A stretch of 56,310 nt of DNA from a virus. The translations under genes were made by a program, and so were the position numbers. The stretch is taken from the IMG/VR virus record IMGVR_UViG_3300022562_001240; one strand, written 5' to 3'. This document shows positions 33,862 through 53,705 of this stretch, piece after piece. Under the pieces are notes generated by a model. It saw nothing but the letters and a program-made list of their open reading frames with translations. It had not been told where the DNA came from and made no database searches. Position 1 is the stretch's first letter. Every line of letters begins with the position of its first letter.

Positions 33862-35459
33862 TTCAGGAAATCCTTCTCATATTGTTCTCTGGACATGATG
33901 TGGACATCACTATCCATGTTCGGACCATCGCAGACCAAGACGTATTCTTCCCCGTCAAGGTTCTGAGATCCCAGAACAACCACATTCTGCCAGATCATGT
34001 GAATTGAAGTGAGAACCTCTGTGGCGTACTTGTGGTACAGCGGTCGTCCATCAGCGTAGTGCTGCATGAAGAACCAGCCTTTGCCCAAGTGGTTCGGGTC
34101 GGTCAACCTGATGTCAGGCAAACCGCCATTACAGTAGCGTTGGAGCATCTGTTTCTTGACTTCCTTGAAATCACGAGACGTGATCTTCCACTCGCCCGTT
34201 GACATGCGGCGGTAGGTGTAATACTGCATCTTCTCGGCGAACTCTGGAGTGAAGAATTCGTTGATCAAGGTGTAGTCGTTGTAATACTTCCTGACTTCGA
34301 AGACCTTCTCCATGCCGAGCCCAAGTTTCTTATCCCACTTGGCCTTCTCCCGCATGTTGGTGCATTCTTCCCATTCCTTGCCGAACTTGCCCTTGTTCCA
34401 TCGATCTTCGATGTCCAAGAGAAGCTCGAAGCCCAGCTTGTATGGGTTCTGACTCCACTGACCTCCCAAGACTCGCATCTTGTGTTCGGCATAGTGCCAG
34501 ATACCAGCCGCTTCATCGTCCTGTCCGAGTGAGGCAAGGCCCTCCCGACAGAGTAGGTGGTAATCGACGAAACTGGCCCAACCTTCATTGATCATCTTCG
34601 TTTGTCGCTGAGGTTGGAAGTACATGGACTCATCATAGAGCATCGAGATGATGTCTTGCTGCCACGGCTTGAGTGGAGCATTATTCTTCAAGAATCCCAT
34701 GATGTCTCGATCAGCACGACCGAACAGGCCAAGGAATTCCGAAGCTTCTTTCTTCTCAATTCTCTCGTGTTCCTTCTCGATGTACGAGTCGGGGTTGACC
34801 CATTCGTCCATGTAGTCATGAGTGGATTTCAAACGTCTGGGAAAATGGTATTTTCTTTCATCCCTGACATTCTTGTTTTCAATCTTCTTTCGCTTCCATG
34901 CCTTCTGAGGATCAATGAGCGTTTCGATTCGCATCACATGGTCGATGAACTCTGTGACACGCTCGCCGCCCCAACGCTTCATGTACTGACGAATTCGAGT
35001 GCTGTGATTCGCCAGCTTGTTCATCATGTTTTCGTCAGTCGGCCCAAAGAAAATGTTGTTCTTGAAGAAGTCGTTGTGGCCGATGGCGTGACAGATAACG
35101 TCCACGTTGTCTACCAACGTGTTCGAGTCCATGCAGTAGATGTAACATGGATTGGTGTTGATCACCATTTCCGAGATACGGTACTGGTTGTATTCGTAAC
35201 CACGACTCATTTCCTCATATTCCATTCCCCACTTCCAGTGTGGGTATCGGACAGGGAAACCGCCGTAGCTGGCAAGCTCAGCCATTTCGTCGTAGCGGAC
35301 AAATTCAACGATGATGGGATAGTAGTCCAACCCCATATCCCTGCAAGCCTTCTCCATCTGAGGAAGCAGTTCCTCCACTTCCTTGTGGATCTTCAGACCG
35401 GGAATGTTGTTGTCACCAACCAGAATTGGTGTCCCGCTCATCATGTTAGATTTTGACAT
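33858..35459 (-). CDS. spoVR: SpoVR-family protein (YcgB-like)
   Basis: 533 aa. ...YPHWKWGMEYEE...NTNPCYIYCMDSNTLVDNVDVICHAIGHNDFFKNN... matches the SpoVR core. Confidence 0.8.
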   Translation of the reverse strand: MSKSNMMSGTPILVGDNNIPGLKIHKEVEELLPQMEKACRDMGLDYYPIIVEFVRYDEMAELASYGGFPVRYPHWKWGMEYEEMSRGYEYNQYRISEMVINTNPCYIYCMDSNTLVDNVDVICHAIGHNDFFKNNIFFGPTDENMMNKLANHSTRIRQYMKRWGGERVTEFIDHVMRIETLIDPQKAWKRKKIENKNVRDERKYHFPRRLKSTHDYMDEWVNPDSYIEKEHERIEKKEASEFLGLFGRADRDIMGFLKNNAPLKPWQQDIISMLYDESMYFQPQRQTKMINEGWASFVDYHLLCREGLASLGQDDEAAGIWHYAEHKMRVLGGQWSQNPYKLGFELLLDIEDRWNKGKFGKEWEECTNMREKAKWDKKLGLGMEKVFEVRKYYNDYTLINEFFTPEFAEKMQYYTYRRMSTGEWKITSRDFKEVKKQMLQRYCNGGLPDIRLTDPNHLGKGWFFMQHYADGRPLYHKYATEVLTSIHMIWQNVVVLGSQNLDGEEYVLVCDGPNMDSDVHIMSREQYEKDFLK

Positions 35460-36454
35460 TACTCGGTTCTCCTCCAGATATCATCCACATCATACGAGAT
35501 ATCTGTAATTAACTCAAGCTCTTCCCGCACTCTTCTTATAGGTTCCGACCAATCTCCTTCGGTCGATTGCCAGAAGAGTTTAACCGTGTCGTACCACATG
35601 GTTGTTTTAGAACGATCCCACAAAGGATTATCGTCGGATTTCATCAATCCAAAAGTTGGTTTGTTCATGGTGCCTGCCAAATGAAGGACAGATGAGTCTG
35701 TCGCAATGACCGCATCCATGGCGTCGATCAAAATTGCCACGTCGTTGAAATCGTATGTTGATGGCATCAACATTGATTCGGTGTTGGGCAAGGTGTAAAT
35801 GTTCCATCCCGATTCTTTAAGGACGGCCATTTGTTCCTCGGGGATTTGTTTGACGTGCAAACCACAAGCGGGCCGATTGGGCTGTATTGCCGCCTCGCCG
35901 TGAGGCAGAATCTCTGGCTGCCAAGGAACTTTGGTCTTCAGAATGACCGATCTGTCGGCGGGATAGTAGTGATCCAACTTGAGGCCACTCAACAGAGCCG
36001 GGATGCACATGATGTTGGTGTGGTAATCGCAAAGGACATGCTGATTGGTGAACTCATCCACGAACCAAACATCTTCCATCAATTTCTTTAAGGCTTCGTA
36101 GGCCGAGTAGCAATTCAGCACGATGCGACATTCCCATTCCCGCTTCAAAGCGGCGAGATATCTAAAGAAATTGATGGTGTTGCCGATGTTGAAGTCCGTG
36201 AACACTTCAATGGACGATCCACGCAGGGACTCCCCCCGCCAGTTGCGGCCAAAGTGTTTGGAAAGGTCTGGACGTGATGCGCCCAGTGTGTCTGAAACAA
36301 TCAGGCTGTAGAGTTCGCCGATGAGTTCGTGACTGGGATCTAATTTGCGGATAACTTCCAACAACTTGACGGCTTTATCGGGCAAGCCGATCCAGTAGTA
36401 GTTGTTGACAGTCGCCAGACCTTGATCAAGATACTGTTTGGAGTCCCGTGCCAT
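35459..36454 (-). CDS. GT9-like glycosyltransferase (heptosyltransferase family), paralog C
   Basis: VIATDSSVLHLAGTMNKPTFGL matches the GT9 D-SG-MHLA-A-G-P motif better than paralogs A and B do. Confidence 0.5.
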   Translation of the reverse strand: MARDSKQYLDQGLATVNNYYWIGLPDKAVKLLEVIRKLDPSHELIGELYSLIVSDTLGASRPDLSKHFGRNWRGESLRGSSIEVFTDFNIGNTINFFRYLAALKREWECRIVLNCYSAYEALKKLMEDVWFVDEFTNQHVLCDYHTNIMCIPALLSGLKLDHYYPADRSVILKTKVPWQPEILPHGEAAIQPNRPACGLHVKQIPEEQMAVLKESGWNIYTLPNTESMLMPSTYDFNDVAILIDAMDAVIATDSSVLHLAGTMNKPTFGLMKSDDNPLWDRSKTTMWYDTVKLFWQSTEGDWSEPIRRVREELELITDISYDVDDIWRRTE

Positions 36455-37289
36455 GAATGCTGTCCCTCAACTCTCGAATTTCCTGATGCGTCGGATCGTC
36501 GCTTTCATCGAGATTGACAAGGAACTCGTCGGACACTTCTGGCCTTCCGCCCTTGGGATAGCAGAAAATGTTCAACGAATTGCCTGCATTCAAGACATCC
36601 ACCTTGTGATACTTGAAGTTGTCTGGATTGTAGACAGGAGTTTCATGCAACTCCCAGTCATAACCCACATGCTCCACGAATCTCAAAATGTCTTCCCTGT
36701 TGTCGGCAAAGTTCACATACAACAGAGGGGTGGACCTATCGATGGTGCGACGGCAACCATTCAGTACAGAAAGCTCCATGCCCTGCACTGACACCTTAAT
36801 CAACTTGGGCTTCGCCAAGTTGACATCATCGATGGCAATTGATGCTACCGGATTATCACATTTACGTCCATCTCGGTCCTTGGCATTCAACAATGTCGCC
36901 AAGCTGATTTGTGATAGATCGACTTCACCATTGATGTCAACCGATGGGAAGTAACAGACGCCTTTGCTGGAATCTGTCACCGAACGGTTGAATGCTTGGA
37001 TGTTGGTGATCTGGTTGAGAGCGATGTTGCCGCACAACATGAAGTACAGGAACGTGTGAGCCTCAATTGCCAAGACGTAACCCTCTGAGGTAACGTGCTT
37101 CGCCAAAGGAATCGTGATCGATCCAATGTTGGCCCCAACATCAACGACCACATCACCCTTGTCAGTCAGCTTCTTCAAGAATTCTACCTTGAAAGAATTG
37201 ACTTCTCCGTAGGTGTCCAGAGAACGACCTACCAATTGATCGTTCTCTAAGAACATCATGTCTCCATACTTCGTGCTGCTGACTTTCAT
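36426..37289 (-). CDS. FkbM-family methyltransferase, copy 1
   Basis: VVDVGANIGSITIPLA plus the family-typical downstream architecture. Paralog of 52872-53705. Confidence 0.65.
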   Translation of the reverse strand: MKVSSTKYGDMMFLENDQLVGRSLDTYGEVNSFKVEFLKKLTDKGDVVVDVGANIGSITIPLAKHVTSEGYVLAIEAHTFLYFMLCGNIALNQITNIQAFNRSVTDSSKGVCYFPSVDINGEVDLSQISLATLLNAKDRDGRKCDNPVASIAIDDVNLAKPKLIKVSVQGMELSVLNGCRRTIDRSTPLLYVNFADNREDILRFVEHVGYDWELHETPVYNPDNFKYHKVDVLNAGNSLNIFCYPKGGRPEVSDEFLVNLDESDDPTHQEIRELRDSIHGTGLQTVS

Positions 37290-38530
37290 GCTGCTGCCTC
37301 TCTCTTATCGTTTTCTTTGCCCAAGATCTTACGGATGGCTTCGATGATCTGCTCGTTGCGATCTTCTTCGCTGAGATTGGGGGCATAACCCCAGTTCCCG
37401 AATCCGAAGTTCCCATCATCGTTATCCGATTCATCGGGGCCGACATTGGCCGTCTCGATATAAGAAGAGTCCAACTTTCCGCCTTTTAGGGCGTTGTCGA
37501 GGTGTTGTTTCACACTATCTTCGTATCTCCAAGAACAAACCTGCGTCATGCCCAACAGATTAACCTTGCTGGGACCGAGTTCTTCTTTGATGATCTTGAT
37601 CATCCGGCTGTTGTCGTCGCCCCAGTTGTCACCATCTGAGAAGTAGAAGATGTAGACGTTGTACTTCTCTGGCGGATATCTGTTTTCCAACTGATCCGCA
37701 ATGGCCCGGAACGCCGACGAACACATTGTTCCACCACCATAACGATAGGTGTAGAACGCCTCTTCGTTGACTTCCTGTGCTCTGGTGTCGTGGACAAAGT
37801 AGCAACGATCCACCTTGTCATAGAATTTTCTGATCCAGCAGTCGATCCACCAACTCATGTCGCTGACAATATCGCAGCGATAGTCGTCCATCGACGCCGA
37901 GCAGTCTCGGGCGAAGAAGATGACAGCATTCGAGGAAGGAATCTTGATCTGTTTGTACTGTCGATATCTGAAGTCGTTGTTGATGGGCGTCAGCAATCGA
38001 ACTGGCACCTTGCAGCCCGGCACCCACTGGAGGTTCTCCAGTTCGCCGGTCATCGACAATCGCTTCAGTGCTTCCTTCATCGTTCGACGAGGATGGCGCA
38101 ACGCTTGCAAACCGACCCGAGAGATATCGTTGTACTTGATCTTGATCTCTTCGTAGGTTTCATTGGGCTTGGGCCTCATGCGAGGCAACTTCAGTTCGTC
38201 CTGCATGAACCGCAGAACGTCATCCATATCGATAGTGATCTGGATGCCTTCACCGGGATCTTCCCCAGCTTTGTTGCCACCCTTGCCCGGTTGTGGGTCT
38301 CGCCCAACAACGTCGCCTTCTTTTCCCGGCCCACGACCGACACCTTCCCCGTTGCTTCCAAACACGAAGCGAGGAATCTCGATCTGCGGGATAGAGATCG
38401 TCATCTTGCCGCCCTTGGGCCGCTGACGAACGATGGACCCCGACTTGATCAGTCTTTTCAATTCACGTCGGGTGCGTCCAGAGATCACATCTCTGAACTT
38501 CTTATGATCTTCTTGGATTCTCTTTGGCAT
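37286..38530 (-). CDS. yhbH: YhbH/YeaH-family protein (DUF444, vWA-like)
   Basis: N-terminal FRDVISGRTRRELKRLIKSG...ISIPQIEIPRFVFG, then a Gly-rich segment, then DCSASMDD and FSDGDNWGDD. Confidence 0.75.
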   Translation of the reverse strand: MPKRIQEDHKKFRDVISGRTRRELKRLIKSGSIVRQRPKGGKMTISIPQIEIPRFVFGSNGEGVGRGPGKEGDVVGRDPQPGKGGNKAGEDPGEGIQITIDMDDVLRFMQDELKLPRMRPKPNETYEEIKIKYNDISRVGLQALRHPRRTMKEALKRLSMTGELENLQWVPGCKVPVRLLTPINNDFRYRQYKQIKIPSSNAVIFFARDCSASMDDYRCDIVSDMSWWIDCWIRKFYDKVDRCYFVHDTRAQEVNEEAFYTYRYGGGTMCSSAFRAIADQLENRYPPEKYNVYIFYFSDGDNWGDDNSRMIKIIKEELGPSKVNLLGMTQVCSWRYEDSVKQHLDNALKGGKLDSSYIETANVGPDESDNDDGNFGFGNWGYAPNLSEEDRNEQIIEAIRKILGKENDKREAAA

Positions 38531-38610
38531 GATGCTCCCCTTGTGTAAGAAAAGAGGGCGATAGCGGTAGAGTAACGATCAACCACCACTACCGCCCCCA
38601 ACGTCCGTCA

Positions 38611-40695
38611 TTACTCGGAGACATCGCCTCTGGCAAAGATGCTGCTCACATAATCGAGCACATCAGTAGCCGACTGCTGGTTGTATCCGCACTGCTTAAT
38701 CAATCGAGTCTTGATGGCATCGATCTTTTCTTGCAGATCGGGGTCCAACTCGGCAGCTTCTTTTGTCAAAGCCGACAACTTGATCGTGTCTTTGACATCT
38801 TCAAAGACCTTGGCTTCAAGAGCCCGCTTCAACTCAGGATTGCTGTCCCAGCGGAACTTTTTGTCCCGAGAAGCCAGCGTGCCGATAAAGGCGGCGAGCG
38901 AACGTCGGAAGTCGTCACAACCCTGTTCGGGGATGCCGTTCTTCTCTTCAATGCTACGCATCAGTCGCTCGTCGGGGTCCATGAGGTTGCCCGTAATCGG
39001 GTTCTCCATCTTCTCGTCATTGACGTAGGCGATCACGTTGTCAACGTATTTGTTGCACAGTCGTTCAATGGCCTTCTCATCGGCGACGAGAGCACGTTGG
39101 ACCTCGTTTTTCAGGATTTCGTCGAGTTCCTTGATTGCCAATTCGACACAGAACTCATACTTCTTCCTGTCCTCCACCTTGGTAATCAGCGACGAGTGAC
39201 CCAAACCTTCCTTGATTTCGCTGAGCACATGGAACACGTTCACATAATGCTTGCGGCGAGCCAATTGGTTCGAGATCTTGTCCTGCACATATCGTGCAGA
39301 CACGCCACCGATCATACCTTCATCTGGGAACTTGTCCCGAAGCTCCTTCACGGTATCTTCGGTCCAGCCCGGAAGCTGACGGCCATCATAAAGTTTGGCC
39401 TTGTCCCGCAGATCGAGTTTCCCCTCACCGTCATCGTGTAAACGAGTCAGAATGGCGAAGAAAGCAGCGATCTCCAAAGTATGTGGCATGATGTGTTGCT
39501 TGACTTTTCCGGGACCATACAGGTGTTCCAGAATCTTCTGCTCATCCGACCAGCGAAGCAGGTACGGCACATCCACCTTGACGGTTCGGTCACGAAGAGC
39601 TTCCATGAACTGGTTGTTCTTGAGCTTTTCGTACTCGGGGTTGTTCGTGTGAGCAATGATCAACTCATCGATCACAATCTGAGGGAACTTCTTCGGCTTG
39701 ATCTGGTGCTCTTGAGACGCTCCCAGAAGATCGTAGAGAAATGCGTTGTCGAGCTTCAACATTTCGATGAATTCACAGATGCCTCGGTTGGCAACTTGGA
39801 ATTCGCCGTCGAAGTCGAAAGCACGAGGATCTGAGTCGGCCCCGAAGTGGCCGATCTTGCGATAGTTCATATCGCCGGTGAGTTCCGTGCTGTCCTGATT
39901 CTTCTCGTCCTTGGGCTGGAATGTTCCGATGCCCACACGATCCGTTTCAGAGTGACATCTGCGGACCACCACGATGTGGTTGTCGATGACCTTCTGCCAA
40001 TCCCCATCATAGGTCTTGAGCAGGTGGTTCAAGAACAGCTTGCAGCGGGGATTGATCTCTCCCTCACAGATCAGCTTGTAGAGACTGTCCTTGTCGTCAT
40101 CACTCGCCATGTCTGTGAACGTGGCGTTGAGATCCTTCAAGAACTCCTGCCGCATGGGAATCGGCATCAGCTTCAAAGGATTTTCGTTGAGAGCCGCATC
40201 GCAGGTGTCATTCAGGTAGATCGCATTCTGCCCTTCGAAGGGAAGATTGACCCACTTGTAAGTGTACCATGCACCAGCATTGGTGCGGCTGTAGCGTTCC
40301 AGACCTCTCTTCAAGAGGCGGCAGATGGTGGATTTCGACGAACCCACCGGACCATGCAGCAAGAGCACACGCTTCTCGGTTCCATAAGAACCGGCTGCAC
40401 CGTGAATGAAATCGACAAGACCCTGAAGAGTCTTCTCTTCCAATCCGAAGATCGGAAGGGTGTCGTCGTCGAAGAAGTGGTATCTGGTGTGTGTCTTTCG
40501 ATAACGCTCGAAAGTGCTGGTGCCCTTTTCCATGATCATGTCATAGACATATTGGAAAGCGTTACGGGCCAGCGTTGGCCGCTTCATGACCAAGTTCAGG
40601 TAGTCGCCATACGACATTTCTTCGTTCAAGGCGAGAAACTGTTCTCGATCATAAAGTTCAGCGTACTTGCTTAAGAAAGTAGTTGTGTTCTCCAT
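38611..40695 (-). CDS. prkA: PrkA-family serine protein kinase (YeaG-like, AAA-type N-domain)
   Basis: 694 aa. Walker A LLLHGPVGSSKSTI and PrkA-like organisation throughout. Confidence 0.8.
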   Translation of the reverse strand: MENTTTFLSKYAELYDREQFLALNEEMSYGDYLNLVMKRPTLARNAFQYVYDMIMEKGTSTFERYRKTHTRYHFFDDDTLPIFGLEEKTLQGLVDFIHGAAGSYGTEKRVLLLHGPVGSSKSTICRLLKRGLERYSRTNAGAWYTYKWVNLPFEGQNAIYLNDTCDAALNENPLKLMPIPMRQEFLKDLNATFTDMASDDDKDSLYKLICEGEINPRCKLFLNHLLKTYDGDWQKVIDNHIVVVRRCHSETDRVGIGTFQPKDEKNQDSTELTGDMNYRKIGHFGADSDPRAFDFDGEFQVANRGICEFIEMLKLDNAFLYDLLGASQEHQIKPKKFPQIVIDELIIAHTNNPEYEKLKNNQFMEALRDRTVKVDVPYLLRWSDEQKILEHLYGPGKVKQHIMPHTLEIAAFFAILTRLHDDGEGKLDLRDKAKLYDGRQLPGWTEDTVKELRDKFPDEGMIGGVSARYVQDKISNQLARRKHYVNVFHVLSEIKEGLGHSSLITKVEDRKKYEFCVELAIKELDEILKNEVQRALVADEKAIERLCNKYVDNVIAYVNDEKMENPITGNLMDPDERLMRSIEEKNGIPEQGCDDFRRSLAAFIGTLASRDKKFRWDSNPELKRALEAKVFEDVKDTIKLSALTKEAAELDPDLQEKIDAIKTRLIKQCGYNQQSATDVLDYVSSIFARGDVSE

Positions 40696-41945: not shown

Positions 41946-41952
41946 CCACGAA

Positions 41953-41984
41953 GAAAAGCCGCCAGAAATGGCGGCTTTTTTCAT
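41953..41984. terminator. bidirectional rho-independent terminator between convergent genes
   Basis: AAAAGCCGCC-AGAAAT-GGCGGCTTTTTT: a GC stem with U/A tracts on both sides. Confidence 0.6.
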
Positions 41985-43351
41985 TACTTAAGGAACCCAG
42001 TTGTGCTCAACCCATCCATCAAAGGAGCACACAAAACCTCCGGGACAATATCCGCCCCGACGATATCCGACTTCTTGTAGTCCGCTCCCTTTACCAGCAC
42101 GTCTGGCCGGATCTCCTTAATAATCTCCAAAGGTGTGTCCTCGTCGAAAGATACGACGAAATCGACCATCTCCAGAGCCGCCATGACCTTCATTCGTTGG
42201 TCCAATGGCTTCAGAGGCCGCTCAGGGCCTTTCAGACGCTTCACAGAATCGTCCGAGTTCAATGCCACGACCAGCTTGTCTCCTTGGCTCTTAGCGAACC
42301 TGAGCGTCTCCAGATGGCCTTCGTGGAGGATGTCGAAGCAACCGTTGGTAAAGACCAGCTTGAAATCTCGGCTGGCGAGATCAAGCCCGTTTTCGACCAA
42401 GCCCCGGTGGGCCATCTCGGCTGGGACAATGGGCCGGTTCATCTTGTTCTGGACGTAGACGGCTCCAGCCGTCCATGCGATCTCTGCCGCCTCTGGGACC
42501 GAGAATCCGTGCCCAATCGCCATCGCAAAAGTTGCACAGAAACAATCGCCAGCCCCAATCACACTCTCTACCTCCACGGTTCGAGTGGGGTTAAAGCAGA
42601 AGAACTCGTCGTGCCAGACTCCCGCCACCTTCTCGCCGCCGAACGTAATCACAACGCCTTCACACTCGGTTTCGTTCTGCAAATGTTTGGCCTGTTCTCG
42701 CCATGTGCTGCGACCAGTCAGATCTGCGGCCTCTTTGGCGTTTGGCTTCAAAATCGTGCAACCTCGCCATTTGCTCAATGGCCCATTCTTTGGATCAACG
42801 ATGGTTGTGACATCATGATAGAAATCGAGGATGCTGTGTTCCTCGCTGGCGAAGAAACCTTTGTTATAGTCTGACAGAATGGCGACATCTGGCTTGGACG
42901 ACTTAGCGATCACGCTCTCAAGATGTTCTGTGACAAAATCAAGCAGATATTCGTCGAGGCCACAGTTGGGTGATTCGATATCGTGTCGCACGACTTGGAC
43001 GCCGCCATCGAGGAAACGTCGTTTGATTGGGAGGCTTGCTTCGATACCACTGAAAGGGGCACAGGTCCATGACAAGCCATGTTCATCAAAAACCCTTGCT
43101 GCTTTGTCATCATAGAAACAAAACAGCAAGGGATCGACATTGAAGTGTTTGAATTGGTAAGCGACATTCGCTGCGCCGCCCGGCTTCCGCACACGCTGGG
43201 AATGCGGGGACCACATGATCGGCATGGGAAACTCGGGACTGATGCGATTGACCTTCACTTCATAGTATTCGTCGATCATTGCATCGCCGAGCACATGAAT
43301 CTTAAGATTCTGGCTCCTGTTCTTTTGTAGAAAGGTCTGGATGTGACTCAT
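41984..43351 (-). CDS. hldE: bifunctional D-glycero-beta-D-manno-heptose-7-phosphate kinase / heptose-1-phosphate adenylyltransferase
   Basis: 455 aa. N-terminal pfkB kinase (KPGGAANVA, GAGDCFCA). C-terminal cytidylyltransferase (TNGCFDILHEGH, DYKKSDIVG). Collinear with E. coli HldE. Confidence 0.85.
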   Translation of the reverse strand: MSHIQTFLQKNRSQNLKIHVLGDAMIDEYYEVKVNRISPEFPMPIMWSPHSQRVRKPGGAANVAYQFKHFNVDPLLFCFYDDKAARVFDEHGLSWTCAPFSGIEASLPIKRRFLDGGVQVVRHDIESPNCGLDEYLLDFVTEHLESVIAKSSKPDVAILSDYNKGFFASEEHSILDFYHDVTTIVDPKNGPLSKWRGCTILKPNAKEAADLTGRSTWREQAKHLQNETECEGVVITFGGEKVAGVWHDEFFCFNPTRTVEVESVIGAGDCFCATFAMAIGHGFSVPEAAEIAWTAGAVYVQNKMNRPIVPAEMAHRGLVENGLDLASRDFKLVFTNGCFDILHEGHLETLRFAKSQGDKLVVALNSDDSVKRLKGPERPLKPLDQRMKVMAALEMVDFVVSFDEDTPLEIIKEIRPDVLVKGADYKKSDIVGADIVPEVLCAPLMDGLSTTGFLK

Positions 43352-46280: not shown

Positions 46281-46320
46281 ATCTTAAGGAATGTGTCAAC
46301 CTCACTCTCTTAAGGAATGA
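46281..46320 (+). promoter_or_regulatory. two direct copies of CTTAAGGAATG in a divergent intergenic region
   Basis: Copies at 46283-46293 and 46309-46319. The second overlaps the ATG at 46317. Confidence 0.3.
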
Positions 46321-46979: not shown

Positions 46980-46989
46980 GGTAAAACAA

Positions 46990-47301: not shown

Positions 47302-47303
47302 AA

Positions 47304-47666: not shown

Positions 47667-48077
47667 TGTGAGAGCCTGAAGCAAATCGTATTCCCGTCTG
47701 AACTGTGGGAATCGTGCGATATATGGCAAGATGTTTTCCCTGACCGTGGCTTCCATGTTCAGGACATAAGGATCGTCAGTTGAATTGTCGTTGCTCAGCA
47801 CGTCGATCAACTGACCCAGCCATTGTCGAACCATTGGCTCTTGAGCATTCCCGCTGACAATTTTCTGAGCGATTGAATCGATGTTCGCCAAGACGTTTTC
47901 CTGCACCTGCGGCTGCTTCTTGGGCTGCTTCTCTTTCTTGGGAGGATCTTCCTCAAACATCGTAGAAACCATGGGAGGCCACATGCGTCTCCACATGGGG
48001 ATGGAAATCCGCCTGAACCCAGCGATGTCGCCGGTCGAGGTTCCAACTTCCTTCAACAACCATTCTTTGAATCCCAT
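47658..48077 (-). CDS. member of the N-terminal-motif family (MGFKEWLLKEVGTS...)
   Basis: Start overlaps the upstream stop in ATGA. Confidence 0.45.
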   Translation of the reverse strand: MGFKEWLLKEVGTSTGDIAGFRRISIPMWRRMWPPMVSTMFEEDPPKKEKQPKKQPQVQENVLANIDSIAQKIVSGNAQEPMVRQWLGQLIDVLSNDNSTDDPYVLNMEATVRENILPYIARFPQFRREYDLLQALTSA

Positions 48078-48643
48078 TACATTCCTCCCATCGGTGGCCC
48101 GCCCATCGGTGGTGCGCCTCCCATTGGAGGACCACCCATCGGTGGCCCGCCCATACCCATACCGCCGCCGCCACCAGCAAGTGGCTCAACCCATGCGTCC
48201 ATCAACTGTTCCAAGTTCATTTGCTCTGTTTGATCTTCGACAGGGCCATCCCAGTAAAGCGGGTTCTGGTCACTGCTGTATCTGTGAATGAACAGTTTAG
48301 GGTTATCTTGGTACATCATTGCCAACGGAAACGTCACTTCGTAGGTCTCATCCCCTCGATCTTTGATCGAAACATTGATGTTTCCAGCAACTCTGAAAGG
48401 CCAACCAAAATCAGGAATCTTCGGGCCATAGAGCATCACGCTGTCAGATTCCAATGCAGCAGAAAAATCTTCGTCTCGAATCCCAAACTCACGACCAAGC
48501 ACTTCAGGATGGTGCTTATTAGTCGTTTTGTTTTGAGGATCAGACGGTGGTGCGGCATCAGCACCCATTGGTGGTGCTGCTTCATCTTCTCTCAACTTGC
48601 AGGAGAAGGAATGCTCTCTGATGAATTCACGAAATCTGGTCAT
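48077..48643 (-). CDS. member of the N-terminal-motif family (MTRFREFIREHSFS...) with a C-terminal (GGPPMGG)n tail
   Basis: Start placed at the ATG at 48643; the track ORF begins at a GTG 27 nt upstream. The tail is ...GGGGGMGMGGPPMGGPPMGGAPPMGGPPMGGM. Confidence 0.45.
   Translation of the reverse strand: MTRFREFIREHSFSCKLREDEAAPPMGADAAPPSDPQNKTTNKHHPEVLGREFGIRDEDFSAALESDSVMLYGPKIPDFGWPFRVAGNINVSIKDRGDETYEVTFPLAMMYQDNPKLFIHRYSSDQNPLYWDGPVEDQTEQMNLEQLMDAWVEPLAGGGGGMGMGGPPMGGPPMGGAPPMGGPPMGGM
48085..48155. repeat. imperfect tandem repeat of about 15 bp (CCCATCGGTGGcccg) within the CDS
   Basis: Repeat units at 48087, 48102 and 48135 encode the GGPPMGG units. Confidence 0.5.
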
Positions 48644-48688
48644 GTCAAAGGTATATATTAAGGCAGACACAGTTTGGCGAGGTGATAA

Positions 48689-49141
48689 GTGGCAACTTTT
48701 AAGACATGGCTATTTGAGGAAGAAGAGTTAGATGGGAAGATCAACTCCCTTCTCGACTCGGAAGGCTTCATCTTGTTCTTCAAGAAAGACGATGATTTCT
48801 TTGGTGTATCAGAGGACGGGCGAATTGTTTTCGCCAAGATGAAAAACCCCGAGGATGAAGATCTGCCGTCTGGATGGGAAGATGAAGCCAGCTTTTCTGC
48901 CCAGAATCTCACCAAGAAAATGAAGGGGGAACCCGCCACTCACCTCTTCAAGAAGGAAGACCTGAACTCGATCAAAGTCATGGATCGGGAGAAAATGTTC
49001 GCAGAACTGAAGAAGATCGCCGAAGGTCTCGGGGACGAAGCGTTCAAGAAAGACCCCGGATTCAGGGTCATCGACATCGCCAGCTTGTTCCAACGTGAGC
49101 CTGATGAGGCTCCCAATTTTGTCAGGGCAGACGAGGAGTAA
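48689..49141 (+). CDS. member of the N-terminal-motif family ((V)MATFKTWLFEEEELDG...)
   Basis: GTG start at 48689 with a GAGGTGA ribosome-binding site 4 nt upstream. Confidence 0.45.
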   Translation: MATFKTWLFEEEELDGKINSLLDSEGFILFFKKDDDFFGVSEDGRIVFAKMKNPEDEDLPSGWEDEASFSAQNLTKKMKGEPATHLFKKEDLNSIKVMDREKMFAELKKIAEGLGDEAFKKDPGFRVIDIASLFQREPDEAPNFVRADEE

Positions 49142-49144
49142 CAA

Positions 49145-49537
49145 ATGCCATCACTACTAGAACTTCAAGATCTGTACTACGAAGCATTGGTTCGTGAACT
49201 GATCGAAAAAACCAAATCCTGCGGCCTGACATGGATTCATCTGGGCGGCACGCAGTTTCAAGCAACAGAAGTCAATACAGCCGTTGACCCCAACGTCACA
49301 TGGGACTTCTTCCTGACCCAGACCACTATCGGCAACGCTACAGAGAAATTCACACTCGATGTGAAGAAAGATAGCGTGACCTACGTTTCCATGGAAGCTG
49401 GCCCTCTGCCAAACACGGGCCGCAGCAGTGTCGTCAAAGAGCTTTACGAGATCGTTGAGATCATCGTGCTCGAACTGGACGCCAAACTGAAGGAGACTGT
49501 CAACTTCGTACAGAGTCTCCAAGATTGTAGGAGCTAA
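49145..49537 (+). CDS. hypothetical protein (130 aa)
   Basis: ORF 3 nt after the previous stop. Confidence 0.4.
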   Translation: MPSLLELQDLYYEALVRELIEKTKSCGLTWIHLGGTQFQATEVNTAVDPNVTWDFFLTQTTIGNATEKFTLDVKKDSVTYVSMEAGPLPNTGRSSVVKELYEIVEIIVLELDAKLKETVNFVQSLQDCRS

Positions 49538-49539
49538 GA

Positions 49540-50235
49540 ATGAGTCGCAACTTCGAAGATGCAAGCGACCAAGGCAAAAGTATGCGAAAGTGGCAGTGCT
49601 TTGTCTGCGGTCAAAACTTCGACGAATATCCAGAATACAAAGAACACATTCTTGAGAACCACGAGGAAGGTCGTGAATACCTCAAGTGTCCTGCTTGTGA
49701 TGCGCCGGTACGAGACATGAAGGCACACTTCAAGTGCAAGCACCCACAACGTATCATGCCAAAAGGAATTCAACATCGAGTCTCCATCTGGCATGACTTC
49801 AAGCCCGGCAAGAACGGGAAGAAAAAGAACTCGGTGCGAAAACCAAAGTTCCGCACAGGAGAGTTTGAATCAAGAAAAAGCGGAACCCTGATCAAGTATC
49901 GATCAGGGATGGAAGAAGAGTTCTACAATCTGTTGGAACAAGACAATGACGTGATGTCATTTCATGCTGAGCCTTACAAGGTTCCCTATTATTGGCAAGG
50001 GGAGTGGCACGACTACATTCCAGATATCCGGGTCAACTTCATGGATGGCAGCGTAGAGATCTGGGAAGTAAAGCCTGCCAATCAGACCAGCTATGATCAG
50101 AACAAAGCCAAGTGGGCCTCAGCCCATACATGGGCACAGAATCACGGATGGGGATTCGTGGTTCAAACAGAAGTTGGTCTGGGCAAATTGAAGACCAAAG
50201 TGAGACGCCAGCGAGGCGATCTGCTTAACGAGTAG
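49540..50235 (+). CDS. C2H2-type zinc-finger protein with a C-terminal PD-(D/E)xK / TnsA-N-like nuclease-fold region
   Basis: CFVCGQNF...HILENH and CPACDA...HFKCKH fingers. The C-terminus has ...DIRVNFMDGSVEIWEVKP..., a D...E-x-K arrangement. Confidence 0.45.
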   Translation: MSRNFEDASDQGKSMRKWQCFVCGQNFDEYPEYKEHILENHEEGREYLKCPACDAPVRDMKAHFKCKHPQRIMPKGIQHRVSIWHDFKPGKNGKKKNSVRKPKFRTGEFESRKSGTLIKYRSGMEEEFYNLLEQDNDVMSFHAEPYKVPYYWQGEWHDYIPDIRVNFMDGSVEIWEVKPANQTSYDQNKAKWASAHTWAQNHGWGFVVQTEVGLGKLKTKVRRQRGDLLNE

Positions 50236-50764: not shown

Positions 50765-51844
50765 TTATCCTGACACGTTAATTGAATCACAGAATTGTTG
50801 AATAACGTCTTCCAACAAAAGACCCAATACTCCGTTAATTACAGTACCCGCTGTTGCATCTGTAATATCCGTGGCTTGATTCTTGGGTTGTTCTGGATCA
50901 GTATCACTGCCACCATCCAAGCCAAGACCAGCACTTCCGGGATTGAGGGCAATCACCTGAATGTTCGCAGCAGTCAATGCTGTAATGACCTCTCCCACTG
51001 TCGGATAATCATGGCCTTTCGCTCCAGCAGCCCAGCCCCAGATATCGCCTACCCATGCAATTGCTCGATTGGCAGTGGGGCGTCCCCCAAGAGTTGTTTC
51101 CCACTCCAAGGCGGCTTTCTGTAATGTAGCCAATTGCTGCTCCGGGCCATCTCCTCCACCACCGGCACTTAAATTACCCACAGCGAAAACCACTCCCTCA
51201 AAGTCATCGGTGAATCCTGTGTTGACTTTCCATCCGTTCGCATAATCGCCAACGTCTTCAAAGTCCCTGTATGTCACCAATCCAATACGACAGGTTGGGC
51301 TGTCCATAGCCACAATAACTTCAGACAACAAATCTCTGAAAGCCGCAATGGTGCTTCCCATAGAACCTGTCGTATCGACAACCAAAAGAATATCGGTGTT
51401 CGAACACACGCAGCCAGACAGATAATCTGGAATTAGCGATCCTCCCACAACAACACCTCCCGAGGTGGTAATGTTGTGGGTTCTAAGACAACGACAACTA
51501 TCTTGAAGAGCCTCAAGAAGCTCTTGCTCGTCATCAGGAAGAAACGAGAACTGTTCTTCTACAGTCTCAAAAATTGAGATGATCTCAGGGTGGACAGACG
51601 AGGAGAGCGTGACAAAAAGCTTGCCCTCCTTCAAGAATTCCAGATAGTAACCCGTGCTGGAGTTGTTGACAGACACACGGCCCACACGCACCACCCAATA
51701 CGTCCCATTGATGACGGGGGTGACTTCATAGAGCGTAGGGCCGATTTTATTCCAGACATAGGCGCAATTTTTGGTGCTCTCCTGAATGATGTCAATCAGG
51801 ATCAACTCTTCAATGCCAAAAAGTTCTTCAAGGTTCTCTGCCAT
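50765..51844 (-). CDS. von Willebrand factor A (vWA) domain protein
   Basis: MIDAS motif ILLVVDTTGSMGS, with downstream Thr/Asp positions consistent with vWA. Confidence 0.55.
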   Translation of the reverse strand: MAENLEELFGIEELILIDIIQESTKNCAYVWNKIGPTLYEVTPVINGTYWVVRVGRVSVNNSSTGYYLEFLKEGKLFVTLSSSVHPEIISIFETVEEQFSFLPDDEQELLEALQDSCRCLRTHNITTSGGVVVGGSLIPDYLSGCVCSNTDILLVVDTTGSMGSTIAAFRDLLSEVIVAMDSPTCRIGLVTYRDFEDVGDYANGWKVNTGFTDDFEGVVFAVGNLSAGGGGDGPEQQLATLQKAALEWETTLGGRPTANRAIAWVGDIWGWAAGAKGHDYPTVGEVITALTAANIQVIALNPGSAGLGLDGGSDTDPEQPKNQATDITDATAGTVINGVLGLLLEDVIQQFCDSINVSG

Positions 51845-51873: not shown

Positions 51874-52875
51874 CTAGTTTCCGTGTTTCGTCGTTAACCA
51901 GCGAACAGTTCGACTTTCGGATCGCATTGCCACAGAGTTAGTAACAGGACCGTGTGAGGTGAATCGGACACCTTCCAAAAGCTGGCCGTTGGTGATTCCA
52001 GTGGCAGCGAACATGACCTCGCCCGCTGCCAAATCTTCAATTCCGAGCAACCGGTCGTTGGCGGGATTCCATGTTTCGGCAGTGCCATAGCTCATGTTAT
52101 GATCAACCTTCTCTTCGCCTTTCTCAAACTCCTGACATTGCATAAATCCACCCATGCACTTCATTGCCGCTGCGGCAATGACGGCCTCTGGTGCGCCACC
52201 AATACTCCAATACATGTCAATCCCCGAGTCGGGCACACATGTCGCAATACAAGCAGTCACATCACAATCTGTGATGAATTTGATTCGACAACCTATTTGC
52301 CGCAAATCCGCAATGAGATCTTTGTGCCGTGGACGATCCATCACACAGACAGTGACATGTTGAGGGGACTTACCGAGAGCGGCGGCGACCATTCCAACAT
52401 TTGCACTGGCCGGGTTCCTCAGATCGATCTGAGACTTGGACGCCACTTCTGGCCCTACGGCGATCTTGTCCATGTAGAACCAGTCGGTTTTGTAGAGCGA
52501 ATCTTTCTTGCCCATAGCGATCACAGACATCGCTTCATAGCCGCCCTTGGCTGTGGGGGTTGTGCCTTCGATGGGATCGACGGCGATAGCGTAGTCTGGG
52601 ATGTGCGTCTTTTGACCCCATTCCTCAACCGCTGTTGGATCTTTGCCAATTGACTCCAGCCCAACCCACTCGCCTTCATACAAACCGAAGGACTCGTCCT
52701 TTTTGCCTTCGCCGATGGCGATCTCTGCGAAAAAGTCGATGTCATTCAACCGACTCCGCATGGCATCTGTGGCTTCTTTGTCAGCAGCCTCTTTGTTGCC
52801 CCTTCCAACCCACTTGGCAGCCGAGATTGCCCCTGCCTCTGTGACTCGGATCAAATCCATGTGAAAGTTCTTCAT
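51874..52875 (-). CDS. glpX: class II fructose-1,6-/sedoheptulose-1,7-bisphosphatase (GlpX type)
   Basis: Collinear with E. coli GlpX: LIRVTEAGAISAAKWVGRGNKEAAD..., AIAVDPIEGTT, PDSGIDMYWSIGGAPE. Confidence 0.8.
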   Translation of the reverse strand: MKNFHMDLIRVTEAGAISAAKWVGRGNKEAADKEATDAMRSRLNDIDFFAEIAIGEGKKDESFGLYEGEWVGLESIGKDPTAVEEWGQKTHIPDYAIAVDPIEGTTPTAKGGYEAMSVIAMGKKDSLYKTDWFYMDKIAVGPEVASKSQIDLRNPASANVGMVAAALGKSPQHVTVCVMDRPRHKDLIADLRQIGCRIKFITDCDVTACIATCVPDSGIDMYWSIGGAPEAVIAAAAMKCMGGFMQCQEFEKGEEKVDHNMSYGTAETWNPANDRLLGIEDLAAGEVMFAATGITNGQLLEGVRFTSHGPVTNSVAMRSESRTVRWLTTKHGN

Positions 52876-53705
52876 CCTAATTCCTTAATTGCCTTAAAGA
52901 ATACCATGTCCAGTTCTCCCCTTCTGGACTCAGGGTAACACACCATGTCACTTGACATCATGGGTGTGTCGAGATCGTGCTGCTCTCGCAGTTCGTCTCT
53001 GTCGTACCCAGACCAATTGTCGGGATTGAAGTATCTCAATCGTACCGACTGGTGAACATAACCGATGCTCTTCAGGTAGTCGATGATCTTTGGAGCATCC
53101 CACGGCATTGACTCCAAGACCATGATTGGCTGATGCTTCTTGATCGTCTCTTGTGCCCCTCGCAGAGTTGCGATTTCGCAACCTTCAACGTCCAGTTTCA
53201 TGAAGTCGAGCTTGGGAAGAAACATTGAGTCAATAGTCATCGTCTTCAGCGGCACATCATCGTCGAATCGTTTCTCTGGCGTCAGATAGAGTCCGCCGTA
53301 ATGCTGACCTTGTTCGTCATAGAAGTACACACCATCGTCATTCTTCAGTTGCTTGTTGATGCAATAGAGCAGATGATCGTCAGAGTCGCTGAGCGGACGA
53401 TCATAGATGGTGACGTTGTAGAGACTGTTGAGAGCGACATTGCCGCACAGGACGTATCGAATGAACTCCTGTGGCTCGAAGGCGTGGACATGGCCTTCCT
53501 CGCCAACCATCATGGCGAGTGGAATCGTGATGGCACCCATATTGGCCCCACCATCGATCACCACGTCGCCGGGCTTGACGAAACGAGAGATAACTTGGAC
53601 TTCACTTTCGAGGGCCTCGCCGTAGAGTTCAAATGACCTACCAATCCATTTGTCGTTCGGCAGATACATCATCGTGCCATGACGACAGGCATTCAGTCCG
53701 ATCAT
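52872..53705 (-). CDS. FkbM-family methyltransferase, copy 2
   Basis: VIDGGANMGAITIPLA. Clearly paralogous to 36426-37289, sharing the CGN(V/I)ALN and EFV motifs. Confidence 0.65.
   Translation of the reverse strand: MIGLNACRHGTMMYLPNDKWIGRSFELYGEALESEVQVISRFVKPGDVVIDGGANMGAITIPLAMMVGEEGHVHAFEPQEFIRYVLCGNVALNSLYNVTIYDRPLSDSDDHLLYCINKQLKNDDGVYFYDEQGQHYGGLYLTPEKRFDDDVPLKTMTIDSMFLPKLDFMKLDVEGCEIATLRGAQETIKKHQPIMVLESMPWDAPKIIDYLKSIGYVHQSVRLRYFNPDNWSGYDRDELREQHDLDTPMMSSDMVCYPESRRGELDMVFFKAIKELG

Follow-up and report, generated by a model that had tools for sequence, protein, structure and literature searches.

Known systems and the window

According to two commentaries (PMC11461863, PMC11573728) on the work of Tang et al. 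(Science 2024), heptose enzymes of viral origin produce ADP-heptose in vitro, and the available text of Iyer, Anantharaman, Krishnan, Burroughs and Aravind (2021; PMC7824862) describes clusters of SDR, cupin, PfkB, nucleotidyltransferase and glycosyltransferase genes in jumbo phages. HldE-type enzymes of viruses and sugar clusters of jumbo phages have thus been published before. Here we analyse a stretch of 56,310 nucleotides of viral DNA (IMG/VR record IMGVR_UViG_3300022562_001240), hereafter the window. A first-pass annotation of the window held that no virus encoding HldE is well characterised; this is out of date, given the split HldE-type genes of cyanomyophages, the published viral ADP-heptose and the presence of at least 353 HldE relatives in IMG/VR. 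The open reading frames that it named all exist, at the positions and in the superfamilies that it gave (Table 1).

Compared with the known HldE/WaaC/WaaF-type heptose system, the window has the same fused kinase/adenylyltransferase, with equal domain order and motifs, and transferases of the GT9 fold. However, it lacks a SIS isomerase, a HAD phosphatase and a clear HldD, and has a cupin and GlpX attached instead; its genes lie dispersed across a phage genome, and its transferases lie far outside the WaaC/WaaF profile range. The heptose cassette of cyanomyophages (for example PSSM2_308-313 in P-SSM2 and SXBG_00216-221 in S-CAM1) consists of a carbamoyltransferase, a nucleotidyltransferase, a PfkB kinase, a small HAD protein, a cupin and an SDR. 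It shares with the window the cupin family (45-51% identity), an SDR partner, and an HldE-type kinase and nucleotidyltransferase (about 23-42% identity across both domains). In the cassette, the kinase and nucleotidyltransferase are separate and the genes, including the HAD phosphatase and carbamoyltransferase, lie tightly together among tail-fibre genes, whereas in the window the two domains are fused, the parts are dispersed, HAD is absent, and GlpX, FkbM and GT9-fold genes are added.

The jumbo-phage clusters, for which surface glycan diversification has been proposed, resemble the window in their NAD-dependent epimerase/dehydratase, cupin sugar isomerase, PfkB kinase, HIGH nucleotidyltransferase, glycosyltransferases and O-methyltransferases, but the available text of that paper mentions no GlpX, PrkA, SpoVR or FkbM, and leaves its eight glycosyltransferase families unnamed. 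The phage UDP-arabinose pathways (Afh system; RB69, DLP3; PMC13326640) follow a similar isomerase-kinase-phosphatase-nucleotidyltransferase logic, near ThyA-family and nucleotide-metabolism genes. They differ in using a SIS isomerase and a MurU-like nucleotidyltransferase alongside a hydroxylase or hydroxymethylase that resembles ThyA; the window's own ThyA is canonical. Sugar kits of large phages are already known, and that of the window has some unusual parts.

Table 1. Sugar-related genes of the window
Feature	Position	Strand	Characteristics
Extended-SDR NAD-dependent sugar epimerase/dehydratase	1..604	-	N-terminal 201 residues, cut by window edge; PF01370 4.9e-49
Core huge-phage GT9-fold protein A	10728..11858	-	GT9 fold
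Core huge-phage GT9-like protein B	11998..13185	-	Cys4 zinc-ribbon insert; remote paralogue of protein A
TylF-type O-methyltransferase	22566..23126	+	PF05711 1.8e-19, 70.4 bits; phrog_6608 methyltransferase
Accessory GT9-family glycosyltransferase	35459..36454	-	Helical N-terminal extension; PF01075 27.6 (cut-off 22)
FkbM-family SAM methyltransferase, copy 1	36426..37289	-	PF05050 1.4e-8; TIGR01444 73.1; beside accessory GT9
HldE-like bifunctional enzyme	41984..43351	-	N-terminal PfkB-type heptose-7-P kinase and C-terminal heptose-1-P nucleotidyltransferase domains
GlpX class II fructose/sedoheptulose bisphosphatase	51874..52875	-	PF03320 5e-107; proposed sedoheptulose-7-P supplier
FkbM-family SAM methyltransferase, copy 2	52872..53705	-	PF05050 2.5e-16; TIGR01444 74.4; between cupin and GlpX
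Cupin, small metal-type	53702..54109	-	Proposed sugar-phosphate aldose/ketose isomerase, candidate GmhA substitute (phrog_7851, PDB isomerases, neighbourhoods)

Genome context

The window is a fragment of a huge-phage genome, viral rather than chromosomal, as shown by its synteny with LR756511, an uncultured phage of 595 kb, and with huge-phage contigs of IMG/VR; the objection raised beforehand, that HldE might be a host gene on a chromosomal contig, does not apply. The sugar-related genes are dispersed over ~54 kb in no single cluster or operon, interleaved with replication, nucleotide-metabolism, PrkA/YeaH/SpoVR and mobile-endonuclease genes. LR756511 retains HldE and the core glycosyltransferase pair (proteins A and B) and lacks the cupin, GlpX and GmhA; the cupin and GlpX are therefore dispensable add-ons. 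Two blocks, cupin-FkbM-GlpX and FkbM-GT9, are lineage-specific insertions that LR756511 does not have, and HldE persists in relatives without them.

HldE

The HldE open reading frame, with PfkB and cytidylyltransferase domains in Pfam, matches NF008454 (HldE) over its full length with 285 bits (E 6.5e-85), below the cut-off of 521, and the next unrelated family reaches 58 bits; the clear bifunctional HldE of the first-pass annotation is borne out. The score against TIGR02199 is 166.9 (cut-off 181.5), and that of the kinase domain against TIGR02198 is 151, so far under the equivalog cut-off of 345 that the sugar could differ. PDB matches include HldC (5x9q, 2e-27) and HldA (4e84, 5e-19), and the motifs GAGD (266-269), HEGH (343-346) and LMDGLSTT (444-451) are invariant across nine phage homologues. 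The enzyme carries the hallmark (F/L)xxGxSTT motif and lacks the Arg that broadens NTP use (for both, see PMC11461863 and PMC11573728). It is 42-71% identical to proteins of many viral contigs and only 34% identical to Salmonella HldE (a bacterial contig inside the phage collection), which points to a long-resident phage lineage.

The family of protein B occurs on 60 IMG/VR contigs, 15 of which also encode HldE, always 20-35 kb distant, as in the window. The two co-occur in LR756511 as well, and many contigs with the glycosyltransferase pair showed no HldE among the matches listed.

GT9-like proteins

All three open reading frames previously called GT9-like are so, but unequally. Only the accessory protein passes PF01075; proteins A and B have no match in Pfam, NCBIfam or PHROGs, the outcome that had been named in advance as counting against the assignment. 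What stands for these two is the GT9 fold of protein A and the hhalign match of the protein B family to that of protein A (probability 96%, E 4e-9), as remote paralogues. The protein B family also aligns with the C-terminal donor domain of the accessory family (probability 73%, E 3e-5). Protein B has 1058 homologues with 60-85% identity, carried by contigs of up to 691 kb.

In the structure model of the accessory GT9 (pLDDT 89), the top 28 Foldseek PDB matches are all GT9 proteins, including 3tov, WaaF and WaaC. The best of them is TibC (4rap, E 9e-6) of the TibC/Aah autotransporter heptosyltransferases, which carry out protein O-heptosylation; this type is also among the top five structural matches of protein A, and the Cys4 cluster of protein B presumably recalls the iron finger of TibC. 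However, the window proteins lack sequence-level membership of this group, and no autotransporter-like acceptor was identified.

The accessory protein deviates at 18 columns that are at least 90% conserved, as against 0-9 in 20 homologues. Among these deviations, Asn replaces the presumed catalytic Asp (D92N, codon 36179-36181), and 12 residues are deleted from the donor loop between codons 199 and 200 (about 35857/35858). The protein is thus probably catalytically impaired in this genome, and the only profile-positive GT9 looks inactive. Located inside the PrkA-YeaH-SpoVR operon, it is fast-evolving; in four of six relatives it lies between DUF444 and SpoVR, with 35-37% identity compared with 72-80% for its neighbours. 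The best candidate for an active heptosyltransferase is protein A, the catalytic-residue equivalences of proteins A and B being judged by eye.

Cupin and GlpX

The presence of a cupin is confirmed by phrog_7851 (3.9e-40), although its Cupin_2 score (24.7 bits) is slightly below the cut-off of 27.2. D-lyxose/D-mannose isomerases (2y0o, 7nzo) are its top PDB matches, with the HxH..E..H ligand positions aligned, and the L016 homologue also matches the mannose-6-P isomerase cupin profile. Homologues with 45-51% identity occur in 35 cyanophage and marine-virus records, within the nucleotidyltransferase-kinase-HAD-cupin-SDR cassette. SIS GmhA was not found in the cyanophages carrying these cassettes, whose 'phosphoheptose isomerase' is a small HAD-like protein (PDB 9iqw, 1xpj). 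At 19 of 27 IMG/VR cupin loci, HldE or a nucleotidyltransferase lies within 8 kb; these co-occurrences are non-independent, because most stem from one related phage backbone.

GlpX was likewise correctly named, scoring 271.9 against TIGR00330 (cut-off 259.3). No genuine isolated-phage record carries a GlpX, and it has no PHROG match. It adjoins the cupin in three related phages (the window, L010 and L011) around a variable slot, which holds FkbM in the window, nothing in L011 and a nucleoside-deoxyribosyltransferase-like gene in L010; in L009, a further weak GT9-like gene is located 3 kb from GlpX. We propose that the cupin catalyses the isomerisation, with its neighbour GlpX supplying the substrate.

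Methyltransferases and SDR

The two FkbM copies, annotated earlier as paralogous, are true paralogues (30% identity, E 8e-43), both above the TIGR01444 cut-off of 37.7. Copy 1 weakly matches Vibrio cholerae RfbT and is found among the relatives in L002 only (45% identity); the start and stop codons of copy 2 overlap both of its neighbours. The TylF-type enzyme and the epimerase at the window edge were also rightly recognised, and both may possibly tailor sugars. No neighbourhood link of TylF to the other parts was found. The edge SDR shares 27% identity with its counterpart in the P-SSM2 cassette, and its NCBIfam scores are non-specific and all far under cut-offs (LegB 89, RmlB 89, GalE 82 and HldD 79 bits); it is not specifically an HldD.

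Proposed pathway

Heptose activation and transfer is the best reading of the gene set, in which comparative genomics ties HldE to the GT9-fold pair, the cupin to GlpX, and the cupin to HldE-type genes (in cyanophages and huge phages). The whole scheme, in which a huge phage carries a phage-lineage pathway making and using nucleotide-activated heptose, we hold to be about as probable as its negation. GlpX would remove the 1-phosphate of sedoheptulose-1,7-bisphosphate, as suggested by the activity range of its family and by gene adjacency. The cupin, as a metal-dependent lyxose/mannose-type isomerase replacing SIS-type GmhA, would convert the resulting sedoheptulose-7-P to D-glycero-D-manno-heptose-7-P; neighbourhoods in three phage kinds and the matching C2/C3 stereochemistry of known family substrates point to this step. 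Strong homology and intact motifs argue that the HldE kinase domain would then form heptose-1,7-bisphosphate. The 7-phosphate would be removed by host GmhB or an unrecognised enzyme: the window holds no candidate, since none of its scanned open reading frames has a SIS (GmhA) or HAD (GmhB) domain, in agreement with the first-pass annotation, and it contains no DxDGT-type motif fitting a phosphatase. The gene set is therefore not self-sufficient, contrary to the earlier view that it would suffice for heptose; it lacks the phosphatase, and has the isomerase step only if the cupin supplies it. The HldE nucleotidyltransferase domain would next yield ADP-heptose and GT9-fold enzymes would transfer the sugar, the core pair being the most likely users because it shares a conserved genome backbone with HldE. 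Tailoring of the sugar would fall to the FkbM methyltransferases, perhaps joined by TylF and the SDR.

Alternative explanations

The dispersal of the parts among unrelated genes, the lineage-specificity of the two blocks and the persistence of HldE without either would also suit unrelated auxiliary metabolic genes (AMGs) that merely share a large genome, an explanation that we consider unlikely though not negligible. GlpX would then boost gluconeogenesis or pentose-phosphate/Calvin flux, HldE would top up the host LPS-core precursor, and the GT9-like, FkbM, TylF and SDR proteins would act in separate glycan or small-molecule modifications. GlpX could indeed serve as a general carbon-metabolism gene, and glpX has been described among the carbon-fixation AMGs of soil viromes (PMC12615777). 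Against this, cupin-GlpX adjacency recurs in three phages despite the changing intervening gene, unrelated cyanophages link this cupin family to HldE-type genes, and the presence of GlpX and the cupin matches that of the accessory GT9 in all three assessable genomes, LR756511 lacking all of them.

We regard as improbable that the activated sugar serves DNA hypermodification, with the GT-B-fold core pair as DNA glycosyltransferases producing a glycosylated modified base, by analogy with T4 glucosylation and the UDP-arabinose pathways for arabinosyl-hydroxycytosine. DHFR and ThyA directly adjoin HldE in all six related phages; however, the ThyA scores above the TIGR03284 cut-off and retains residues equivalent to C146, N177, Y94, W80 and W83, DHFR beside it fits true thymidylate synthesis, and neither a hydroxymethylase nor a hydroxylase was seen in the window. 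A dNMP kinase (phrog_139) always precedes the cupin, L010 has its nucleoside-deoxyribosyltransferase-like gene, the window encodes two dCMP deaminases, the arabinosylation pathway shares the logic noted above, and the highly conserved core pair lies near DnaE and a DHH phosphoesterase, all of which would fit DNA modification; yet we know of no GT9 enzyme that acts on DNA.

We consider it very improbable that the HldE-like enzyme and the cupin use a hexose instead of a heptose. In such a route GlpX would yield fructose-6-P, which the cupin, as a phosphomannose isomerase, would turn into mannose-6-P, and the kinase and transferase would form an NDP-mannose-type donor. In its favour, the kinase domain scores well under the equivalog cut-offs for HldE, E. 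coli GlpX is, by family name, a fructose-1,6-bisphosphatase, and cupin relatives match the mannose-6-P isomerase cupin profile. Against it, no other family matches either domain nearly as well as HldE, the enzyme carries the hallmark motif of heptose nucleotidyltransferases, the resemblance of the transferases is specifically to heptosyltransferases and, to our knowledge, mannose is not activated in any pathway by way of a 1,6-bisphosphate and a PfkB kinase.

For the heptose pathway, the most likely candidate acceptors would be a host envelope glycan or phage or host proteins, the latter through TibC/Aah-type O-heptosylation. If a host envelope glycan is the acceptor, the cell surface would be altered during infection.

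Phage origin and gene content

The 56-kb window has a G+C content of about 50% and carries most of its genes on the minus strand. No relative at the DNA level was found among 50,697 phage records, and the sole close relative at the protein level in these records was LR756511.1, a 595-kb uncultured phage whose gene order is that of the window over at least 40 kb. A ThyA-DHFR-HldE-PrkA-DUF444-SpoVR block is also common to four IMG/VR viral contigs, at 55–80% identity. This synteny with LR756511 and the IMG/VR phage contigs indicates that the window is a fragment of a huge-phage genome. The first-pass annotation, made from the sequence alone, had allowed that the contig might be chromosomal and HldE a host gene; phage synteny, together with the viral nature of the closest relatives, rules out both a chromosomal origin and a recent host capture of HldE. 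An identical HldE is on record solely on an 11-kb Logan contig, and a 238,888-bp JGI/Logan contig carries proteins identical to the glycosyltransferase (GT) proteins of the window. The ORFs named in the first-pass annotation all exist and all lie within the superfamilies proposed for them.

The DnaE-type polymerase is split into an N-terminal part, corresponding to positions 34-439 of phrog_405, and a C-terminal part, corresponding to positions 436-1054. The two halves are about 8.7 kb apart, with some twelve genes between them, including the tmRNA gene; in LR756511 they adjoin. This tmRNA gene, with the tag peptide VETSTPLRMAA (ARAGORN), is the only tRNA-like gene of the window. A thiamine-diphosphate enzyme of 545 residues, 53% identical to its LR756511 counterpart, has its best match in the indolepyruvate/phenylpyruvate decarboxylase model TIGR03394 (356 bits, below the cut-off), and its gene is flanked by two conserved ORFs without a family match. 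A plus-strand block, with ThyA on one side and the GlpX island on the other, has comparable blocks in the related loci L002–L005; it ends with a TnsA-like/endonuclease I-like protein bearing a zinc finger, and its small ORFs are partly duplicated in relatives, one of them being present twice in L004.

Features of the window and of related phage loci
Feature	Sequence	Coordinates	Strand	Remark
Conserved ORF	window	897-2015		no family match
Thiamine-diphosphate enzyme	window	2558-4195	-	
Conserved ORF	window	4205-5293		no family match
GT9-like ORF 10728 (core pair)	window	10728-11858		
GT9-like ORF 11998 (core pair)	window	11998-13185		
DnaE-type polymerase, two ORFs	window	18204-21086; 29840-31249	-	
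tmRNA gene	window	23968-24348	-	
DHH phosphoesterase	window			
PrkA-DUF444(YeaH)-SpoVR set	window	33858-40695	-	
SpoVR/YcgB	window	33858-35459	-	
Accessory GT9	window	35459-36454		
DUF444/YeaH	window	37286-38530	-	
PrkA	window	38611-40695	-	
HldE	window	41984-43351		
Plus-strand block	window	46317-50235	+	
Small ORF of the plus-strand block	window	49145-49537		homologue twice in L004
TnsA-like/endonuclease I-like protein	window	49540-50235		end of plus-strand block
von Willebrand factor A-domain protein	window	50765-51844	-	
AAA ATPase, IF3, peptide deformylase, ClpP	window			
Two dCMP deaminases, DHFR, ThyA, dNMP kinase	window			
Adjoining DnaE halves	L001 (LR756511)	about 10869-14390		
Interrupted SpoVR	L002 (IMGVR_UViG_3300020195_001430)	19377-21359		
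Cassette small HAD-like gene	L006 (P-SSM2 PSSM2_311)	11312-11656		
Cassette small HAD-like gene	L007 (S-CAM1 SXBG_00218)	11159-11482		
Gene in cupin-GlpX slot	L010	7533-7985		

HldE

The bifunctional HldE recognised in the first pass does combine an N-terminal PfkB kinase domain (PF00294) with a C-terminal cytidylyltransferase-like nucleotidyltransferase (NTase) domain (PF01467), and residues 14-452 of its 455 align to NF008454. It falls short of all the HldE equivalog cut-offs, clearly so in the kinase half: 285.5 bits with NF008454 (cut-off 521; next unrelated family 58), 151 with TIGR02198 (cut-off 345) and 166.9 with TIGR02199, a near miss (cut-off 181.5). Among solved structures, the protein matches those of HldC and HldA, and its motifs GAGD (266-269, PfkB), HEGH (343-346, the HxGH of the NTase) and LMDGLSTT (444-451) are invariant in nine phage HldE homologues. 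LMDGLSTT follows the pattern (F/L)xxGxSTT, which a pair of commentaries on the work of Tang et al. (2024), PMC11461863 and PMC11573728, report as the heptose-NTase hallmark; the definition of the pattern is that of PMC11573728. The fifth residue of the motif is Leu, not Arg, so HldE is not of the promiscuous 'STTR5' type.

No well-characterised virus encoding HldE had come to mind in the first pass. However, HldE-type genes are a long-established annotation in cyanomyophages, for example in P-SSM2, and IMG/VR contains at least 353 relatives, giant-virus bins among them. According to PMC7824862, HldE-type parts also belong to jumbo-phage sugar clusters, alongside cupin isomerases, PfkB kinases, HIGH nucleotidyltransferases and GTs; PMC11461863 and PMC11573728, the commentaries on Tang et al., report that viral HldE-type enzymes make ADP-heptose in vitro. 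Giant-virus metagenome bins (IMG/VR GVMAG contigs L157, L159, L161 and L174) likewise encode HldE-like proteins of full length, which share about 30% identity with the window protein.

GlpX, methyltransferases and the edge SDR

GlpX, by family a class II fructose-1,6-bisphosphatase, exceeds the cut-off of TIGR00330 (271.9 vs 259.3) and matches PF03320 over its full length (5e-107). The role proposed for it would need sedoheptulose-1,7-bisphosphatase activity, which certain class II enzymes (cyanobacterial F/SBPase, Bacillus methanolicus GlpX) are known to possess. The two FkbM genes, which are paralogues of each other, pass both TIGR01444 (73.1 and 74.4 vs 37.7) and PF05050 (35.5 and 60.7 vs 22.7), and TylF passes Pfam; the first-pass assignments of GlpX, of the FkbM pair and of TylF are thus borne out. 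The next gene downstream of GlpX, on the same strand, encodes a von Willebrand factor A-domain protein of 359 residues, and a weak homologue of it follows GlpX in the related locus L011. The SDR at the edge, cut at 201 residues by the window end, scores 79 with the HldD model TIGR02197 (cut-off 274.6), no better than with the LegB, RmlB and GalE models. The match is thus non-specific, and the protein is assigned as a generic extended SDR rather than as HldD in particular.

The cupin as a candidate isomerase

The cupin scores below the cut-offs of Cupin_2 (24.7 vs 27.2) and Lyx_isomer (16 vs 20.8). Its best solved relatives are D-lyxose/D-mannose isomerases (PDB 2y0o, E 4.6e-4), with metal-ligand positions aligned, and the HxH..E..H ligands are present as H45, H47, E52 and H93. 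Lyxose/mannose isomerases interconvert a 2-ketose and an aldose with the manno configuration at C2/C3, and we infer that this is the chemistry needed to turn sedoheptulose-7-P into D-glycero-D-manno-heptose-7-P. The cupin is a member of phrog_7851, which is annotated 'cysteine dioxygenase'; the cyanophage cupin bears the same annotation, which looks doubtful there.

Homologues 45–51% identical to the cupin occur in 35 cyanophage/marine-virus records. The cyanophage cassette around it comprises a carbamoyltransferase, an HldE-type NTase, a PfkB kinase, a 'phosphoheptose isomerase', the cupin and an SDR. The 'phosphoheptose isomerase' has 107–114 residues and an N-terminal DxDGT, and its structural matches are two small HAD-like proteins, 9iqw (E 1e-10) and 1xpj; it is probably of small HAD type, not SIS, and its public annotation wrong. 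The 1xpj fold is that of the sugar-bisphosphate phosphatase of phage arabinose pathways (PMC13326640). A search of the phage collection with an approximate E. coli GmhA query found no SIS GmhA in the cassette cyanophages. Because the HAD-like protein covers the phosphatase step and SIS GmhA is lacking, the cupin is the only isomerase candidate of the cassette.

Scanning of the window ORFs revealed no SIS domain, no HAD domain or plausible DxDGT motif, and no homologue of the cyanophage small HAD protein, in agreement with the first-pass statement that neither GmhA nor GmhB could be recognised. This lack of a phosphatase fits the statement in PMC11461863 that the phosphatase is missing from viral sets. 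The cupin is a candidate for a non-SIS isomerase; its fold differs from that of GmhA, and it is proposed to be GmhA-like in function, not GmhA itself.

Linkage among the parts

That the parts are unrelated auxiliary genes is unlikely, and the linkages among them bear on the question from both sides. HldE or a stand-alone NTase lies within 8 kb of the cupin in 19 of the 27 IMG/VR cupin loci, and in one further locus HldE is 12 kb off on the same contig. In most of these loci the phage backbone is one and the same, with a dNMP kinase, an optional DUF6899 and the cupin followed by ThyA-DHFR-HldE, so that they amount to a single evolutionary observation. Independent contexts are provided by the cyanophage cassette, by a cassette of cyanophage-like make-up (locus L015) and by an overlapping NTase-cupin pair (loci L016 and L017). 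Whether the dNMP-kinase-like gene upstream of the cupin could supply an enzyme lacking from the pathway was also considered, but the gene is of the T4 gp1 dNMP kinase type (phrog_139), so its adjacency to the cupin is probably backbone synteny.

The cupin and GlpX are neighbours in three related phages, which also carry the accessory GT9, and the gene between them varies: FkbM in the window, a nucleoside-deoxyribosyltransferase-like gene in L010 and none in L011. LR756511 lacks the accessory GT9, cupin, GlpX and GmhA. The 11998 family is found on 60 IMG/VR contigs, at least 15 of which also have an HldE relative; on the shared contigs listed the two are always 20–35 kb apart (29 kb in the window), and likewise in LR756511. 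The gene in the slot of L010, a close relative, is nucleoside 2-deoxyribosyltransferase-like (PF15891, 4e-19); it is unexpected beside enzymes of sugar phosphates and may point to nucleotide/DNA chemistry.

GT9-like proteins

Of the three GT9-like ORFs proposed in the first pass, the accessory one passes Pfam GT9 (PF01075, 27.6 vs gathering 22), on the C-terminal donor motif only, whereas 10728 and 11998 have no match in Pfam, NCBIfam, PHROGs or PDB sequences. Nor does either have a BLASTP paralogue within the window: as 'three GT9 paralogues' the ORFs are undetectable at the BLASTP level and are linked by profile-profile and fold comparison only.

The model of the accessory GT9 (pLDDT 89) has a GT-B fold nearest to GT9 structures, which make up all of its top 28 Foldseek PDB matches, the first being TibC, a protein heptosyltransferase. 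The family is small (23 proteins). In relatives it lies between DUF444 and SpoVR with 35–37% identity, compared with 72–80% for its neighbours, and in two relatives it is absent; the gene is thus a fast-evolving accessory one. The window copy is the most deviant of 21 members, with 18 changes at columns at least 90% conserved (0–9 in the others). It has N92 where 20 of 20 homologues have the D of 'GMGDT', and a deletion immediately ahead of the invariant Lys has removed 12 residues from its 'aW.SN..N.LS' loop. From motif comparison with E. coli WaaC, the N92 site presumably corresponds to the catalytic base D13, and the deleted loop to the T187/T188 donor-phosphate loop before K192. Given these two losses, the window copy is probably catalytically impaired and apparently decayed.

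The GT-B fold of 10728 is closest to GT9 structures, and hhalign gives its family a probability of 0.1% against the profile-positive 35459 family. Its invariant residues include D42, immediately following strand 34-38, and D258/S264 within 'LDVHSGIS', and strand 174-178 is followed by a 'PTTR' segment; these features resemble WaaC motifs by eye only. The 11998 family aligns with the 10728 family at 96% hhalign probability and with the donor (C-) domain of the 35459 family at 73%; by eye, the Asp position of its C-domain is seemingly replaced. On profile comparison, the 10728 and 11998 families are remote paralogues. The 11998 family has 1058 relatives and the 10728 family 394, mostly 55–85% identical and situated on contigs of up to about 690 kb, and both genes belong to the core set of a large clade of huge phages.

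The PrkA-YeaH-SpoVR module

A complete PrkA-YeaH-SpoVR module of stress/sporulation type is kept in six of six relatives, at 52–80% identity. PrkA and SpoVR also occur in jumbo phage RsoM2USA (PMC8504454). In this genome, YeaH and SpoVR are separated by the inserted FkbM and GT9 genes. A functional tie of the accessory GT9, as a gene inside the operon, to PrkA/YeaH/SpoVR was considered but is doubtful: two relatives have no gene in the slot and the content varies in the others, so that it looks like an insertion hot spot. About 1.3 kb interrupts SpoVR of L002, the break lying in the alignment between residues 101 and 101-223, and L002 and L003 have insertions of 1.6–2.4 kb between PrkA and DUF444; these suggest mobile elements (intron, intein or homing endonuclease).

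Proposed pathway and alternatives

GlpX would provide sedoheptulose-7-P, which the cupin would convert to D-glycero-D-manno-heptose-7-P. The kinase domain of HldE would then form the 1,7-bisphosphate, the 7-phosphate would be removed by host GmhB or an unrecognised enzyme, and the NTase domain would yield ADP-heptose, whose sugar the GT9-fold enzymes would transfer and FkbM would methylate. The analysis shows the family assignments, motifs, folds and gene neighbourhoods; every substrate, the order of the steps and the core pair as users are inferred. The scheme as a whole has, in our judgment, an even chance of being right; our confidence in the HldE step alone is higher.

A broader reading is that self-supplied heptosylation is a core function of the huge-phage clade (hundreds of contigs, to ~690 kb). 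Here the phage-lineage HldE would feed the conserved, heterologous and hitherto unannotated GT9-fold pair, one member of which would have a Cys4 metal site, and the targets of heptosylation by this pair would be proteins or DNA of the phage itself, not host LPS. Within a subclade, the cupin would take the place of the universal SIS GmhA and, together with GlpX, would draw directly on sedoheptulose-1,7-bisphosphate. We hold this reading to be doubtful. Use of the sugar for DNA glycosylation, as the nucleotide-metabolism neighbours might suggest, is improbable: ThyA is canonical, its canonical residues and ThyA equivalog match rule it out as a hydroxymethylase, and no hydroxymethylase is visible in the window. 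That the substrate is a hexose instead of a heptose is most improbable.

Implications

Nucleotide-activated heptoses, which are potent innate-immune agonists, were long thought to be a speciality of bacterial LPS. Recent work has shown that the enzymes are encoded by viruses too, and PMC11573728 describes the use that viruses make of them as an open question. Four aspects of the present locus appear to be new: the presence of a fused HldE among the conserved backbone genes of a clade of huge phages, the module of cupin and GlpX, the GT9 fold in two unannotated core proteins (for 11998 a probable one, from profile comparison) and the apparently decayed accessory GT9. A long-standing misannotation of the cyanophage 'phosphoheptose isomerase' has likely been exposed as well.

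The candidate cupin isomerase would explain the GmhA-free cassettes of cyanophages and huge phages, with GlpX as a possible entry point from sedoheptulose-1,7-bisphosphate, and the unannotated GT9-fold pair, which accompanies HldE in huge phages, may represent the transferases that are missing. Self-supplied heptosylation, if true, would make this the first viral system for heptosylating proteins or DNA, and the first committed step in the synthesis of heptose would be catalysed by a new class of enzyme. The locus thus offers concrete, testable handles on viral heptose use.
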